64,000 nucleotides of DNA from positions 192,001-256,000 of the forward strand of contig CAWJKZ010000021.1 of assembly GCA_963843575.1 (NCBI GenBank), read 5' to 3'. Position 1 is the first letter of the stretch, and every line of letters begins with the position of its first letter. A model generated the notes under the pieces. It was not told where the DNA came from. It ran no database searches and saw only the letters and a list, made by a program, of their open reading frames with translations. Below, piece after piece: positions 14,775 to 20,193 of this stretch. The position numbers and the translations under genes are program-made. The stretch comes from an uncultured Acidobacteriota bacterium. GTDB lineage: Bacteria; Acidobacteriota; UBA6911.

Positions 14775-16148
14775 ATGCCTGCGAGCAGGAAAATCGTGAT
14801 CATGGGGGCCGCGGGGAGGGATTTTCACAACTTCAACCTCTGTTTCCGCAATAACCCGGCGTACCGTGTCGAAGCATTCACCGCTTTTCAGATCCCGAAC
14901 ATCTCGGGCCGCACCTATCCGCCGGGACTCGCCGGCGAGGGGTATCCGGAGGGGATCCCGATCTATCCCGAAGCCGATCTCCCGGGGCTGATCCGGGACA
15001 AGGGGATCCAGGAGGTGGTCTTCGCCTACAGCGACGTCTCGTACGCCGACCTCATGCACAAGGCGTCGCTGGTCAACGCCGCCGGCGCGGATTTCCGGCT
15101 CTTGGGCGCGGCGGGCACGATGCTCCGGGCGGGGAAGCCGGTGGTGGCGGTCTGCGCCGTCCGGACGGGATGCGGGAAGAGCCAGACGTCGCGGCGCGTT
15201 GCGGAGCTGCTGCGTGGACGCGGCAAATCGGTGGTGGTCGTGCGCCACCCCATGCCGTACGGCGACCTGAACGCGCAACGCTGCCAGCGTTACGAGGCGC
15301 TCGCGGACCTGGACCGGCACCGCTGCACGATCGAGGAGCGCGAAGAATACGAGTCCCACATCCTGCAGGGAAACATCCTCTACGCGGGGGTGGACTACGA
15401 GGAAATCCTGCGCAGCGCCGAAAAGGAGGCCGACATCATTCTCTGGGACGGCGGCAACAACGACCTGCCGTTCTTCCGCCCGGACCTGCACATCGTGCTG
15501 GTGGACCCGCACCGACCCGGTCACGAGCTGCGCTACTACCCGGGGGAGACCAACCTGCGGATGGCGGATGTGGTGATCGTGAGCAAGTCGGGGAGCGCGA
15601 CGGCGGCGGGTGTGGAGGAGGTGACCGCGAACGCTAGAGGCGCGAACCCGCGGGCCCTGTTGATCCGCGCCGACTCGATCCTGCACGTCCAGGACGAGAC
15701 GGCTATTCGCGGCAGGCGAGTGCTGGTGGTCGAGGACGGCCCGACCCTGACGCACGGCGAGATGACTTACGGCGCGGCGCACCTGGCGGCGCGGCAGTTC
15801 GGAGCGGCCGAGATCGTTGACCCGCGGCCCTACGCGGTGCGCTCGATGCGTGAGACCTTCGCTCGGTATCCCCACCTGGTCGACGTGCTCCCGGCCATGG
15901 GATATGGCGACGAGCAGGTCCGGGACCTCCAGGAGTCCATCGACGCCGTCCCGTGCGACCTCGTGCTGGTCGGCACCCCGCTCGACCTGGGGCGGCTGAT
16001 CGAGACCCGACATCCGATGCTGCGCGTGACCTACAGCCTCGACGCGGTTGCGTCGGAAGCGCTGGACCGGGTGCTGGGACAGTTCCTATCCAGTCCGTTG
16101 GAGACAAGAGGCGACCATGCGGAAAAAGGACTTTCTCTCCATCCGTGA
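14775..16148 (+). CDS. arcE: P-loop protein of the cyclic 2,3-diphosphoglycerate synthetase/'GTPase' family; probable arginine synthetase (ArcE-like)
   Basis: IMGAAGRDFHNFN, AVRTGCGKSQTSR, RHPMPYG, CTIEEREEYE, WDGGNND, VVEDGPTLTHG, LPAMGY; first gene before OTCase and carbamate kinase. Confidence 0.75.
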   Translation: MPASRKIVIMGAAGRDFHNFNLCFRNNPAYRVEAFTAFQIPNISGRTYPPGLAGEGYPEGIPIYPEADLPGLIRDKGIQEVVFAYSDVSYADLMHKASLVNAAGADFRLLGAAGTMLRAGKPVVAVCAVRTGCGKSQTSRRVAELLRGRGKSVVVVRHPMPYGDLNAQRCQRYEALADLDRHRCTIEEREEYESHILQGNILYAGVDYEEILRSAEKEADIILWDGGNNDLPFFRPDLHIVLVDPHRPGHELRYYPGETNLRMADVVIVSKSGSATAAGVEEVTANARGANPRALLIRADSILHVQDETAIRGRRVLVVEDGPTLTHGEMTYGAAHLAARQFGAAEIVDPRPYAVRSMRETFARYPHLVDVLPAMGYGDEQVRDLQESIDAVPCDLVLVGTPLDLGRLIETRHPMLRVTYSLDAVASEALDRVLGQFLSSPLETRGDHAEKGLSLHP

Positions 16149-17034
16149 TCAGTCCACGGACGAGCTGCGCGACACGCTCATCAACGCCTTTGCGGTCAAA
16201 TCGGATCCGCTGAAGTACTCGGATGCGCTCAGGGGGAAGGCTCTGGCCATGATTTTCGAGAAGCCTTCCCTGCGGACTCGGGTGACCTTCGATGTCGGCA
16301 TACACCAGTTGGGCGGCTTTTCCGTCTACCTCTCGCCCGGCGAGATCAACCTGGGCAAGCGCGAACCGGTGGGCGACGTGGCCCGCAACCTCGAGCGCAT
16401 GGTGCAGGGGATCATGATCCGCACGTTCAGCCACCGGATCGTGGAGGAAATGGCGGCGTGCGCGTCGGTCCCTGTGATCAACGGCCTCACCGACTTCAGC
16501 CACCCCTGCCAGGCGGTGGCCGACTACATGACCATGATCGAGTGCAAGGGGGAACTGAGCGGCCTGAAGCTGGCCTATCTCGGGGACGGCAACAACGTGG
16601 CCAACTCGCTGATGTTCGGCGCTGCCCTGCTGGGTGTGCACATCGTCGTCGCCGCCCCGCGCGGCTACGAGCCGAGGACAGAGGTGCTCGAGTGGGCGCG
16701 CGCGCACGCACCGGCCTCGGGGAGCAGGATCGAGGTCACGGACGATCCCGAACAAGCCGCCGCCGGCGCCGACGTGCTCTACACGGACGTCTGGGCGAGC
16801 ATGGGCCAGGAGGACGAGGCGGCGGAGCGGCGGCGGAGCTTTCAGCCATACCAGGTCTCCGAGCGCCTGTTCGAGCTGGCCAGGCCCGACGCGATCTTCA
16901 TGCACTGCCTCCCCGCTCATCGGGACGAAGAAGTCAGCGCGGGGGTGATCGACTCGCCCCGATCCGTCGTCTTCCAGCAGGCGGAAAACCGGCTCCACGC
17001 GCAGAAGGCGATCATGCTGGGCGTCATGGGTTGA
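16117..17034 (+). CDS. argF: Ornithine carbamoyltransferase
   Basis: FEKPSLRT, HPCQ, GDGNN, DVWASMG, FMHCLP, AENRLH. Confidence 0.95.
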   Translation: MRKKDFLSIRDQSTDELRDTLINAFAVKSDPLKYSDALRGKALAMIFEKPSLRTRVTFDVGIHQLGGFSVYLSPGEINLGKREPVGDVARNLERMVQGIMIRTFSHRIVEEMAACASVPVINGLTDFSHPCQAVADYMTMIECKGELSGLKLAYLGDGNNVANSLMFGAALLGVHIVVAAPRGYEPRTEVLEWARAHAPASGSRIEVTDDPEQAAAGADVLYTDVWASMGQEDEAAERRRSFQPYQVSERLFELARPDAIFMHCLPAHRDEEVSAGVIDSPRSVVFQQAENRLHAQKAIMLGVMG

Positions 17035-17043
17035 GGTGAATCC

Positions 17044-18006
17044 GTGGCTAGATCCGCGCTGGTCGCAGTAGGCGGAAATTCGCTCGTCCGTGCGGGAGAG
17101 CAGGGGGCGGTCCGTGAGCAGGTTGCCAACGCGCGCCGCATCAGCCGTGCGATCGCCGCGCTCCTGCGGGAAGGGCTCGACGTGGTCGTCACGCACGGCA
17201 ACGGGCCGCAGGTGGGGGCCGCACTGCTCCGCTCGGAAAGAGCCTCCGGCCAGGTGTACGAACAGGGCCTCGACGTGTGCGTCGCCGCCACCCAGGGCGA
17301 GATAGGCTACATCCTTCAGCAGGCGCTCGGGTACGAAATCCGCCGCCAGGGGATCGACAGGCCGGTGACCACCATCCTGACCCAGGTCGTGGTGGGCGTG
17401 GACGACCCCGCCTTCCTGCACCCCACGAAACCCGTCGGGCCCTTTTACTCGCGCACCGCGGCCGAGGAAAAGGCGCGCCGGCTGGGGTGGATCATGGTCG
17501 AGGACGCCGCCCGGGGCTACCGGCGCGTGGTCCCCTCGCCGCGCCCCCTGGAGATCGTCGAAGAGGACGTGATCCGCAGGATGCTCTCAATGGGGATGCT
17601 GGTGATCGCGCTGGGCGGGGGAGGTATCCCGGTGGTGCGCGAAGAGGGCGCGCTCCGCGGGGTCGACGCCGTGATCGACAAGGACCGTGCCTCCCTGCTG
17701 CTCGGCTCGCGCCTGCCGGTCGATCTCCTCGTCTTCGCCACCGACGCCGACCGCGTCTACCTCGACTACCGGAAGCCCGGCCAGCGGCCGCTGACCCGCG
17801 TGTTTGCGCGGCAGATGCGCGCCTACCTGGCCGCCGGCCAGTTCCCGCCCGGGAACATGGGGCCCAAGATCGAAGCGGCGCTCGAATTCCTGGCGCTCGG
17901 GGGGAAGGAAGCCATCGTCGCCTCCCACGAGCACCTCGTGGCCGCCGTCCACGGCGAGGCCGGCACCCGGATCCTGCCCGACAACTCCGAGGAGCGCAAT
18001 CCATGA
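17044..18006 (+). CDS. arcC: Carbamate kinase
   Basis: VAVGGNSL, THGNGPQVG, PTKPVGPFY, RRVVPSPRP, GGGGIPV, VIDKD, MGPKI. Confidence 0.96.
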   Translation: MARSALVAVGGNSLVRAGEQGAVREQVANARRISRAIAALLREGLDVVVTHGNGPQVGAALLRSERASGQVYEQGLDVCVAATQGEIGYILQQALGYEIRRQGIDRPVTTILTQVVVGVDDPAFLHPTKPVGPFYSRTAAEEKARRLGWIMVEDAARGYRRVVPSPRPLEIVEEDVIRRMLSMGMLVIALGGGGIPVVREEGALRGVDAVIDKDRASLLLGSRLPVDLLVFATDADRVYLDYRKPGQRPLTRVFARQMRAYLAAGQFPPGNMGPKIEAALEFLALGGKEAIVASHEHLVAAVHGEAGTRILPDNSEERNP

Positions 18007-18917
18007 AGCTCCGTCACGTCATTCAGTCTCAACAGTTCACCGTACCCCTCCTGATGGAGCTCTTCGACCGCACCCGCGCCATGGAGCGCGTCGTGCGCCG
18101 GGGCGGGACGCAGGATTACCAGAACAAAATCATGGCGACCCTGTTCTACCAACCCTCGACGCGCACGCGCTTCTCGTTCGAAGCCGCGATGTACCGCCTG
18201 GGGGGAAAAGTGTTTTCCACCGAGCAGGCCCGCTACTTCTCCTCGGAGGTCGAGGGAGAGCAGCTGGAAGACACGATCCGCACGATCTCCGGCTACTCCG
18301 ATGTCATCGTGATCCGCCACTCTGAGGTGGGGGGAGCGGCGCGCGCGGCGGCTGTGTCACGGGTGCCGGTGATCAACGCCGGCGACGCCAACGGCGGGCA
18401 GCACCCCACGCAGGCCCTGCTGGACCTTTACACGATATTCCGCGAACGCCGCACGCTCGACGGACTCAGCATCGCCATCATCGGGGACCTCGAACGCGGC
18501 CGCACCGCCCGCTCCCTGGCCTACCTGTTGAGCAAATTCGACCGAGTGAAGATCTGGTTCGTAAGCCCGCCCGAGCTTCAGATGGCGCGCGACATCCTGG
18601 ACTACCTCGAGGAAAACGACGTGTGGTACGGGCTCGAACCCGACATGGACCGCGTGCTCGGGCACGTCGACGTCGTCTACCTGACCCAGATCCGCCCGGC
18701 CCGCCTCAAGGAGCAGCAGGGGGCGCTCAAGTACACGATCGATGCCTCGGTACTTCGTTGTCTGCGGCCCGACGCCCTGATCCTGCACCCCCTCCCGCGG
18801 ACCGCGGAACTGGACAAGGCTGTCGACGAAGACCCCCGCGCGTGCTACTTCCGGCAGGCGGCCAACGGCCTGTTCGTGCGGATGGCGCTGCTGACAATGG
18901 TGCTCGAGGACGCCTGA
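18003..18917 (+). CDS. Aspartate carbamoyltransferase-like protein (plant-type), with substituted Asp-binding residues
   Basis: [24 protein letters not shown] and HPLPR are present, but KGE is EGE and TRIQ is TQIR; ATGA overlap with arcC. Confidence 0.85.
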
Positions 18918-18972: not shown

Positions 18973-20193
18973 ATGGAAGAGGAACTCAAGGCTGCAAAGC
19001 CTGCGACCACTGCGGACGCCCTCATCGACCTCGAAAACGAGTACGGCGCACATAATTACAACCCGCTGGACGTCGTCGTGCACCGGGCGTCGGGTGTCTG
19101 GGTGTACGACGTCGAGGGGAAGCGTTACCTCGACTGCCTGGCCGCCTATTCCGCCGTGAACCAGGGACACTGCCATCCGGCCATCCTGCACGCGGCCGAG
19201 GAGCAGATGCGCCTCGTGACCCTGACCTCGCGCGCCTTCCGCAACGACCAGCTTCCGCTGCTGTGCCGGGACCTGCACGAACTCACCGGCATGGAGATGG
19301 CGTTGCCCATGAACTCCGGGGCGGAGGCGGTCGAAACGGCGCTGAAGGCGGCGCGCAAGTGGGGCTATACGTGCAAAGGGATCCCTCCGGGGAAGGCGGA
19401 GATCGTCGTCTGCGCCAACAACTTTCACGGCCGCACGATTTCGCTCGTGAGTTTTTCCACCGACGAACAGTACCGGCGCGGCTTCGAACCGTTCACCCCC
19501 GGTTTCAGGACGGTGCCGTACGGAGACAGCGACGCACTCCGCCGCGCACTGACTCCCAACACCTGTGCCTTCCTGGTGGAGCCCATCCAGGGGGAGGCGG
19601 GAGTCGTCATCCCGCCGGACGGTTACCTCGAGGCGTGCTCCAGGCTGTGCAGGGAAAACGACGTGCTGTTCGTGGCCGACGAGATCCAATCGGGGCTGGG
19701 GCGCGCCGGAAAGCTCTTCGCCTATTTGTACGAGGACGTCGAGCCCGACGTCCTGATCATAGGGAAAGCGCTCGCCGGCGGGTTCTACCCCGTCTCGGCC
19801 GTGCTGGCCTCCAAGGAGGTGCTCGGCGTCTTCGGGCCCGGCGACCACGGCAGCACGTTCGGCGGCAACCCCCTCGCCTGCGCCATCGCCCGGGCCGCGC
19901 TCCGCGTACTGCAGGAGGAGAAGCTCGTCGAGCGCTCCGCCGAACACGGCCGGTACTTCCTCGGGCTCCTGCGGACGCTGCGCTCCGCCGACATCGTCGA
20001 GGTAAGGGGCCGCGGCCTCTGGATCGGCCTCGAGCTCAAGCGTGGAGCACGCGGCTGCTGCGAGATCCTGAAGGAGCGGGGGATCCTCTGCAAGGAAACC
20101 CACGAACGCGTGATCCGGGTCGCGCCCCCCCTCGTGATCACGCGTGAGGAGATCGACTGGGCCTTCGAAAGGTTCCGCTCCGTCCTCGAATAG
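18973..20193 (+). CDS. rocD: Ornithine--oxo-acid transaminase
   Basis: [72 protein letters not shown]. Confidence 0.96.

Follow-up and report, generated by a model that had tools for sequence, protein, structure and literature searches.

An aspartate carbamoyltransferase-like paralog encoded behind carbamate kinase in a bacterial ArcE-type arginine operon: a candidate kinase-docked accessory subunit

Aspartate carbamoyltransferase (ATCase) contacts aspartate through Lys84, Arg229 and Gln231 (PMC4581275, PMC7878868), of which Lys84 comes from the adjacent chain; Arg229 and Gln231 bind its beta-carboxylate, and the RxQxER motif that contains them is stated to be 'found in all known ATCases' (PMC4581275). 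Paralogs annotated as ATCases that carry STRT and HPTQ but lack RxQ were described as pseudo-ATCases by Barba et al. in 2013. In the sections of that article drawn on here, three groups are distinguished by a third motif and by residues 229-231, namely HPLA with AIA, AIS or SIA, H[ST]LP with GX[SC], and HSLP with VXP (PMC4016543). The same sections give their genomic contexts as carbamate kinase (CK) with allantoinase, ygeW with xdh and hyuA, and a Na+ symporter with asparaginase, and report that the CK-adjacent Rxyl_2847 is a ureidoglycine carbamoyltransferase (UGTCase), which converts allantoate and phosphate to ureidoglycine and carbamoyl phosphate (CP). Here we describe an ATCase-like paralog, hereafter ATCl, that is encoded directly behind CK in a catabolic operon of an uncultured Acidobacteriota bacterium (a 64,000-nucleotide stretch of contig CAWJKZ010000021.1, hereafter the window), together with its relatives in several phyla.

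ATCl shares with the published pseudo-ATCases the annotation, the motifs and the absence of RxQ, and with group 1 the adjacency to CK, and the ygeW, xdh and hyuA neighbours of group 2 recall the context of a sister branch of the family (type C, see below). However, members of the branch to which the window belongs (type B) keep HPLP throughout (81 of 81), positions 229-231 read Q-I-R in the window and mostly R-I-[RDQNHLEK] in the family, and the surroundings of ATCl, with ArcE, ornithine carbamoyltransferase (OTC) and ornithine-oxo-acid aminotransferase (OAT), are not described in the cited sections of PMC4016543. UGTCase and groups 1 to 3 were thus rejected as the identity of ATCl, both the third motif and the 229-231 motif mismatching the published sets. 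By the published motif criteria and descriptions, the ATCl family is a fourth kind of pseudo-ATCase. Among the papers retrieved on pseudo-ATCases, pyrB2 and ATCase-like paralogs, no title or abstract describes such a gene.

Two further systems resemble the arrangement considered below. According to the part of PMC6022934 used here, the CK of P. furiosus forms a physical complex with OTC and channels kinetically to OTC and ATCase, a coupling of CK to trimeric carbamoyltransferases that protects labile CP and would be common to both cases; however, that system is anabolic, hyperthermophilic and built from fully active enzymes, whereas the present one is catabolic and ATCl lacks the aspartate residues. 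The pseudo-dihydroorotase (PyrC') subunit of the P. aeruginosa ATCase, as presented in the cited portion of PMC7053772, is a catalytically inactive paralog of a pathway enzyme that is retained as a required component of a hetero-oligomer built from trimers and dimers. There the ATCase is active and the dihydroorotase-like chain is dead, whereas here the ATCase-like chain would be the accessory one, CK would be active, and the complex is a prediction.

The ATG of ATCl at position 18003 overlaps the TGA stop of the CK open reading frame (ORF) as atga. The encoded protein shows the two-domain OTCace_N plus OTCace fold (PF02729, E 4.3e-41; PF00185, E 2.7e-24), and its residue numbers coincide with those of E. 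coli ATCase up to about residue 235. Its best solved structural relative is the plant-type (ATC II) ATCase PYRB of Arabidopsis (6ypo, E 5.4e-93; E. coli ATCase 1q95, 8e-63), and it is 52-53% identical to Brassicaceae ATCases over 99% of the query. ATCl resembles the plant enzyme in fold, domains and an identical CP site: besides STRT it carries IRH (residues 104-106, with R105-H106), QHPTQ (133-137), GRT (166-168, with R167) and HPLPR (262-266), and the common carbamoyltransferase signature of STRT, HPTQ and HPLP is therefore complete in the window and conserved across type B. The 80s (CP) loop is of equal length in the two proteins, plant F161-S162-S163 corresponding to Phe79-Ser-Ser. In contrast, plant K166, the equivalent of Lys84, is replaced by Glu (E84; codon GAG, 18252-18254), plant A164 and A165 by E82, a family-specific residue, and V83, and plant R310 and Q312, equivalent to R229 and Q231, by Gln and Arg, so that Q-I-R-P-A-R stands where ATCases have RxQxER. 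The ATCl family further differs from the plant enzyme in having no conserved D162 or E50, in a one-residue insertion ahead of HPTQ and in the absence of a pyrimidine context.

The intact CP motifs, the substitutions in the 80s and 240s loops, the plant-type resemblance and the overlap with the CK stop had all been called in the original prediction, which was made from the letters of the window, and each was recovered here, the exchanged codons being read directly in the DNA. Its further statement that no pyr genes lie near ATCl, which is located between CK and OAT, holds for the roughly 9-25 kb annotated. The genome of the window (G000; 88% complete, 27 contigs) contains three OTCace_N genes, namely ATCl, the OTC of the operon and a separate canonical pyrB on contig C14 (316 aa; SKGET, HPTQ, RVQHER) that adjoins an ORF read by eye as PyrR-like, which bears out the claim that ATCl is a paralog. 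The genome also encodes carB, argG and argH. All four genomes with ATCl in a sample of 251 genomes of the phylum (G000, G063, G210, G198) likewise have a separate canonical-type pyrB match, at 35-38% identity, and ATCl is almost certainly not a second true pyrB.

A scan of species-representative genomes yielded 80 loci with relatives of 60-91% identity, and 81 species-level members were compared with 98 canonical ATCases that had been chosen, for the presence of K84, R229 and Q231, from 106 full-length representatives. Position 84 is E in 55 members, A in 9, D in 7, K in 5, Q in 2 and P, M or S in 1 each, and position 231 is R in 41, D in 16, Q in 8, N in 5, H in 4, L and E in 3 each and K in 1. 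Two more residues are affected, D162 and E50, which in ATCase serve domain closure and the positioning of Q231: the family carries E (56), A (21), D (3) or N (1) at the former, and Q (29), E (15), R (13), K (12) or others at the latter. Arg229 is kept in 77 of 81 members, with Gln only in the window and L004 and His in L062 and L079, and for this reason the R229Q/Q231R swap is the mark of a subclade, whereas the loss of K84 and Q231 marks the family. Besides the window and L004, at least 62 of the 120 metagenome proteins closest to ATCl carry the swap; among these 120, the 12 commonest 80s-loop patterns (115 sequences) have K84 in 1, and the 12 commonest 240s-loop patterns (92 sequences) are made up of TQIR (62) and TRI[LRH] (30), with Q231 in none.

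On the CP side, by comparison, PSTRTR is found in 73 of 81 members and ASTRTR or SSTRTR (7) or PSTRTQ (1) in the remainder, and STRTR, R105, H134, Q137, R167 and the PLP of HPLP are kept in the family. Family-specific gains comprise E82 (93%), D164 (96%), P15 and R181 (100% each), Y39, Y64 and others, as well as the Gly131 insertion, which is G in 75 of 81 members and a gap in 96% of the 98 canonical sequences. Since the odd residues are common to relatives and the frame is intact, they reflect in-frame substitutions, as had been predicted, and neither private drift nor base-call errors. The lost positions vary instead of sharing one new residue, which suggests relaxed constraint, and judged by this pattern the aspartate site looks relaxed and not re-specified to one new ligand. 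The original prediction of a 'rewired aspartate site' with an EGE/TQIR signature thus stands in part: the determinants are gone family-wide, K84 and Q231 included, but positions 84, 231, 162 and 50 show no single new specificity, and the exchange at 229 is limited to the subclade.

The 80 loci are labelled as Acidobacteriota, Gemmatimonadota and Bacteroidota/Ignavibacteria/Kapaibacteria, with a few metagenome-assembled genomes (MAGs) of Chromatiales, Hyphomicrobiales and Deltaproteobacteria, and their usual gene order is OTC-CK-ATCl-OAT-ArcE. Within 8 kb of ATCl, CK was found in 77, OTC in 68, OAT in 66 and ArcE in 61 of the 80 loci; in the 61 loci whose flanks reach 2.2 kb or more upstream and 3 kb or more downstream, these counts were 60, 58, 53 and 49, and CK, OTC and ArcE occurred together in 49. 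The co-location of ATCl with the other genes of a catabolic CP operon, as originally proposed for the window, therefore extends to its relatives. In 24 of 75 loci the ATCl start overlaps the CK stop or follows it within 30 nt (11 with ATGA, 1 with a 56-nt overlap and 12 at 0-30 nt), two further spacings (-918) being coordinate artefacts. All-against-all clustering of the ORFs of the 80 loci revealed no wider conserved neighbour beyond the five genes, the next clusters covering at most 19 loci and including antisense ORFs. ATCl is conserved as well as or better than its OTC, CK and ArcE neighbours, as illustrated by L081 (OTC 60%, CK 54%, ATCl 61%, OAT 62%). Two Gemmatimonadota-type loci (L051 and L055) carry CK-ATCl-OAT-ArcE, and the 2.6-5.8 kb that precede these genes hold no OTC.

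ATCl shares at least 73% identity with each of its 120 closest database proteins, and the sources that name any of them call them ATCase. At 50% clustering the family forms approximately one cluster, and beyond it the nearest relatives, 50-57% identical, are canonical ATCases that carry TRIQKER and the plant-like loop AREFSSAAKGET. Within the phylum, ArcE homologs were present in 69 of 101 genomes and type B ATCl in 4 of 251 and 5 of 401, denominators that include three genomes flagged unpublished (G049, G024, G152), none of them with ATCl. Eight ArcE loci sampled with 1.5 kb flanks were of the plain ArcE-CK-OTC kind, with no ATCl in those flanks. The notion that ATCl is needed for the ArcE pathway was consequently ruled out: most ArcE operons of the phylum lack ATCl, which must be dispensable for this pathway.

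A sister branch, type C, consists of one genome (G211) and 13 metagenome loci, the latter 67-90% identical to the G211 protein P0271, which itself is 53-54% identical to ATCl and whose start overlaps the CK stop. In G211 the relative stands in a cluster of YgeY (582 bits, cut-off 321), CK, a ThrC-like pyridoxal phosphate (PLP) enzyme, SsnA (469, cut-off 444), a YgfK-like Fe-S protein, a selenium-dependent-type xanthine dehydrogenase (XDH; 796, slightly below the cut-off of 830) and YgeW (656, cut-off 453). No OTC, ArcE or OAT was found in the 14 type C loci, and ATCl follows CK in 13 of them, the remaining one (L107) being too short to tell. All 14 carry Leu in place of Arg54 of STRT and Pro at position 84; residue 229 varies among Q, R, G and T, and HPLP frequently has S, D or N instead of its His, while R105, HPTQ, R167 and the Gly131 insertion (DGKGGQHPTQ) are retained. 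Given that Arg54 is invariant in every characterised transcarbamylase of PMC4581275 Table 1, it is very unlikely, on this sequence criterion, that type C acts as a transferase.

A quick maximum-likelihood tree built from 84 rows places types B and C in a single clade (SH-aLRT 98) that branches within the plant-like ATCases; type C (99) is nested in B, next to the type B locus L074 (97). The CKs beside ATCl show a mean identity of 53.8% between types B and C, versus 47.4% to the plain ArcE-CK-OTC kinases of the window's phylum. Taken together, this monophyletic clade is locked to CK in two unrelated catabolic settings, an ArcE/OTC arginine operon and a YgeW/selenium purine cluster, and the feature that survives all changes of context and active site is the place of ATCl directly behind CK. 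As type C keeps the CK linkage despite the loss of Arg54, the shared role would be independent of transfer chemistry.

A complex of CK and ATCl was modelled at 1:1 stoichiometry from 79-row alignments of the two proteins taken from the same loci (types B and C). Three runs gave ipSAE values of 0.63, 0.61 and 0.63, compared with 0.01 for the best of three controls; contacts agreed by at least 94%, and the partner pLDDT (predicted local distance difference test) was at least 86. The ipSAE mark applied is reached by 58 of 80 solved complexes and by 2 of 110 mismatched pairs, counts that hold only roughly here (custom alignments). The model supports binding of ATCl to CK through 22 predicted contacts on ATCl (10, 13-16, 149, 151, 153-156, 177-178, 180-183, 203, 205-206, 208 and 223), a patch that would take in the N-terminal helix together with the far face of the C-terminal domain. 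We know of no solved CK-ATCase complex, which would make it unlikely that the prediction reproduces a memorised template.

The contact positions are more variable than other positions in canonical ATCases (entropy 2.73 versus 1.94 bits) and equally conserved in the ATCl family (0.83 versus 0.85 bits), the gain in conservation being greater at the patch (Mann-Whitney p 3.7e-5), which sets ATCl apart from the plant enzyme as well. Four of 15 previously computed family-specific positions (14, 15, 156, 181) fall inside the patch (hypergeometric p 0.017), and none of the 79 aligned B and C sequences departs from P15, G154, K178, R181 or D223. The predicted contacts on CK (12, 15-21, 55, 133-136, 139, 154-158, 243, 270-271) presumably cluster close to the CP site, about the glycine-rich loops and protruding subdomain. 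The signature on the CK side is weak: of 12 positions that are conserved in the B and C kinases and differ in eight type A kinases, only position 16 belongs to the contact set, and 13 is adjacent to it.

These results suggest a model in which type B ATCl is a CP-binding, CK-docked accessory subunit and not an ATCase, a reading to which we assign a probability of roughly 0.45. ATCl would be an ATCase-derived, dedicated partner of the CK encoded just upstream, its trimers and the CK dimers forming a hetero-oligomer. Residues of the parent activity have been lost, K84, Q231, D162 and E50 being relaxed in type B and R54 absent from 14 of 14 type C loci. The CP site is complete in type B, which for this reason probably binds CP, either as a sensed ligand or as a held intermediate, and ATCl might gate, stabilise or organise CK, such that CP from the catabolic OTC would yield ATP and be neither lost nor drained from biosynthesis. 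Because the predicted patch spans both domains of ATCl, a ligand-driven domain movement could conceivably be passed on to CK. The fuller version of this model, in which the ATCase trimer has become a regulatory or organising subunit of CK and the old active site is a CP sensor or holder gating ATP formation, in a hetero-oligomer comparable to the c6r6 ATCase holoenzyme or to ATCase-dihydroorotase dodecamers, appears unlikely to us as it stands. The CK-ATCl pair would then be a two-gene module plugged into at least two unrelated ureido fermentations, ArcE/OTC arginine breakdown and YgeW/selenium-dependent purine breakdown. The interpretation first given for the gene is therefore partly supported: its observations are confirmed, and it was right in taking ATCl for something other than an ATCase in a catabolic CP setting.

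The five genes of the operon are closely packed on the same strand (Table 1).

Table 1. Operon genes and features of ATCl in the window
Feature	Coordinates	Strand	Details
ArcE-like gene (arginine synthetase family, inferred)	14775..16148	+	alternative GTG start 14748
Ornithine carbamoyltransferase (OTC)	16114..17034	+	NF001986 423.5 bits (cut-off 306), TIGR00658 396.5
Carbamate kinase (CK), predicted binding partner	17044..18006	+	NF009007 331.8 bits (cut-off 266)
ATCl, ATCase-like paralog, type B	18003..18917	+	304 aa, stop-free frame of 304 codons
Predicted CK patch, residues 10-16 (invariant P15)	18030..18050	+	model
CP motif S52-T53-R54-T55-R56, intact (within PSTRTR, ATCl residues 51-56)	18156..18170	+	
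80s (CP) loop F-S-S-E-V-E-G-E-Q	18237..18263	+	DNA TTC TCC TCG GAG GTC GAG GGA GAG CAG
Gly131, one-residue insertion ahead of QHPTQ	18393..18395	+	in types B and C, canonical ATCases without it
Predicted CK patch, residues 149-156 (invariant G154)	18447..18470	+	model
Predicted CK patch, residues 177-183 (invariant K178, R181)	18531..18551	+	model
Remaining predicted CK contacts 203, 205, 206, 208 and invariant D223 (residues 203-223)	18609..18671	+	model
240s loop T-Q-I-R-P-A-R (ATCase motif T-R-x-Q-x-E-R)	18684..18704	+	DNA ACC CAG ATC CGC CCG GCC CGC
Ornithine-oxo-acid aminotransferase (OAT), final gene of the operon	18973..20193	+	TIGR01885 519.4 bits (cut-off 378.4)

The first gene gave no Pfam or NCBIfam match. 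It showed a faint PDB match to cyclic 2,3-diphosphoglycerate synthetase (E 0.0036), and the Atlas clusters closest to it bear the name 'putative GTPase' (0.99), a likeness that fits ArcE/TK2200 homologs as Michimori et al. describe them in the sections of PMC11032458 drawn on here; by this match of descriptions we assign the gene as ArcE-like. According to the same sections, ArcE converts arginine, ADP and phosphate to citrulline, ammonia and ATP and is often encoded near arcB and arcC. The main text of that article does not contain the term 'aspartate carbamoyltransferase', and its supplementary gene-cluster and distribution figures S2, S10 and S11 may already show ATCl in bacterial arcE clusters. 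The OTC start was picked by eye within the ORF 16048-17034, and CK scores 351.5 on TIGR00746, slightly below the cut-off of 358.25. The operon is flanked upstream by MutS2 on the opposite strand and downstream by a quinone reductase and a TonB gene. Its OTC is the sole OTC found in the genome of the window (88% complete), as is also the case for G063 (99% complete), and with argG and argH present this single enzyme may serve arginine synthesis and breakdown alike. In the same genome, argH (C14:690059-691422) and a second carB copy (C27:64828-67952) each run through three consecutive frames without internal stops and look like assembly indel or frameshift errors or pseudogenes; on this ground the assembly would contain indel errors.

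As the chief alternative, and in line with one option of the original prediction, type B could be a genuine catabolic or new-acceptor carbamoyltransferase, a counterpart of UGTCase, which would phosphorolyse an N-carbamoyl compound other than carbamoyl-aspartate or citrulline and hand the CP to the docked CK for extra ATP; the acceptor would keep an alpha-carboxylate (R167) and have no beta-carboxylate, and its side chain might be neutral or cationic given E82, E84 and D164. We consider this possible, if somewhat doubtful. Several observations agree with it and weigh against an accessory subunit: the full signature (STRT, HPTQ, HPLP, R105, R167) is under strong purifying selection across phyla in type B, as expected of a working enzyme; the newly conserved E82 and D164 near the site hint at a specific second ligand; CK adjacency, here with co-orientation, is given as a mark of catabolic transcarbamylases in the cited part of PMC6022934; and Rxyl_2847/UGTCase, the one characterised CK-adjacent paralog of the ATCase branch, is a real catabolic enzyme according to the cited sections of PMC4016543. 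The accessory role is also weakened in that the CK-ATCl complex is a 1:1 prediction of a kind that close cousins of true partners can pass too, that the family alignment, being more uniform than the canonical set, makes conservation look higher than it is, that a search among proteins of 533-2000 aa yielded no CK-ATCl fusion and only plant ATCases and CAD-type fusions (at most 53% identical), and that in one Ignavibacteria MAG (L068:8001-8927) ATCl is an orphan, flanked by a WD40-repeat gene and a glycosyltransferase, none of CK, OTC, OAT and ArcE lying within 8 kb. The predicted docking itself suits channeling as well as regulation. However, arginine breakdown supplies no second ureido substrate, citrulline being served by the OTC of the operon, and clustering of the 80 loci revealed no conserved deiminase, hydantoinase or transporter beside the five genes. 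The positions that would be expected to read the side chain vary between opposite charges (E, K or A at 84; R, D or Q at 231), the motifs match none of the three published sets, the nested type C has kept its link to CK although Arg54 is gone from 14 of 14 loci, and the predicted patch, as read from residue numbers, maps to where the C-domain strands have their N-terminal ends, at a distance from the active site.

The original prediction had offered, as another option, an inactive regulatory partner of the OTC. One form of this would be a hetero-hexamer in which an ATCl trimer joins an OTC trimer and makes the single OTC run catabolically. Both proteins have the same fold and are expected trimers, OTC is present at 58 of the 61 loci with room for it, and only one OTC was found in each of the two genomes mentioned above; but the constant neighbour is CK (60 of 61 loci), which accompanies ATCl also in the OTC-less YgeW clusters of type C and in L051 and L055, and the sole interaction modelled, that with CK, was supported, which makes the OTC partnership improbable. 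That ATCl is still a weak ATCase, diverting CP from arginine breakdown into pyrimidine synthesis, is very improbable. It scores 284.1 on TIGR00670, above the cut-off of 236.95, though 256.5 on NF002032, below the cut-off of 263; R229 together with R231 in most members is imaginable as a stand-in for K84, and the ArcE pathway of T. kodakarensis supplies biosynthetic CP, as stated in the part of PMC13260591 used here. However, TIGR00670 does not discriminate, since the Arg54-less type C protein passes as well (285.7), K84 and Q231 are confined to 5 and 8 of 81 members, whereas all three of K84, R229 and Q231 are carried by 98 of 106 full-length representatives, by selection the canonical set, and RxQxER is stated for all known ATCases (PMC4581275). 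Bacteroidota-type members moreover pair D, N or E at 231 with E or D at 84, type C is devoid of R54, and the genome of the window has its canonical pyrB and carB. A decaying duplicate or an assembly artefact without function can practically be dismissed: although the assembly contains frameshift-like breaks elsewhere (argH and the carB copy, three pieces each), ATCl has an intact frame, is 60-91% identical across several phyla, at least as conserved as its OTC, CK and ArcE neighbours, and is accompanied by all three in 49 of the 61 loci with enough flank.

Some further observations concern the loci and their relatives. ArcE homologs of the phylum occur mostly in plain ArcE-CK-OTC clusters (including loci L085-L095). 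A Terriglobia MAG (L046:5-4008) has a tandem duplication, OTC-CK-OTC-CK, upstream of ATCl. Among the type C loci, L096 (G211:C8) and L097-L106, on Acidobacteriota-type and metagenome contigs, hold a complete YgeW/YgeY/SsnA/YgfK/Se-XDH-like purine-degradation cluster with cysteine-synthase-like and ThrC-like PLP enzymes instead of a recognisable YgeX. A 525-residue protein with AA_kinase and OTCace domains (P0021) was considered as a natural fusion and rejected, residues 1-224 of CK being joined exactly to Met1 of ATCl on a 2.2-kb contig, which probably reflects a deletion or a misassembly/assembly chimera.

Binding of a UMP-type ligand, as in plants, was likewise considered and set aside: the residues that ATCl retains are those binding UMP in Arabidopsis, but plant A164 and A165 are E and V or I in ATCl. 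The F161 loop of Arabidopsis has been proposed to underlie UMP inhibition in plants. The assumption that a Phe-containing CP loop is confined to plants was ruled out, as many unnamed canonical representatives carry AREFSSAAKGET; these include P0122, P0127, P0129, P0154 and others, canonical ATCases whose CP loop is identical to the Arabidopsis F161 loop. If they are bacterial, UMP-type inhibition may not be plant-only. Six other ATCase-like proteins (P0135, P0139, P0186, P0195, P0218, P0265) lack K84 and/or Q231 (e.g. FSSEITGSS / TRLHKEL) and fall outside the ATCl clade in the tree; they may represent other, independent pseudo-ATCase lineages.

Overall, annotation pipelines will label ATCl as ATCase, and metabolic reconstructions of Acidobacteriota, Gemmatimonadota and Bacteroidota/Ignavibacteria MAGs will credit these with a second pyrB. 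The ArcE pathway was described only in 2024, and the present finding defines a five-gene bacterial version of it, OTC-CK-ATCl-OAT-ArcE, across several phyla. It points to an unrecognised component attached to CK, the ATP-yielding step common to all ureido-compound fermentations. Should the CK-ATCl complex prove real, it would extend the list of enzymes reused as pseudoenzyme subunits and would offer a handle on how a catabolic CK is kept from draining biosynthetic CP; if, instead, ATCl is an enzyme, another catabolic transcarbamylase would be gained, along with a new substrate for ATP formation.

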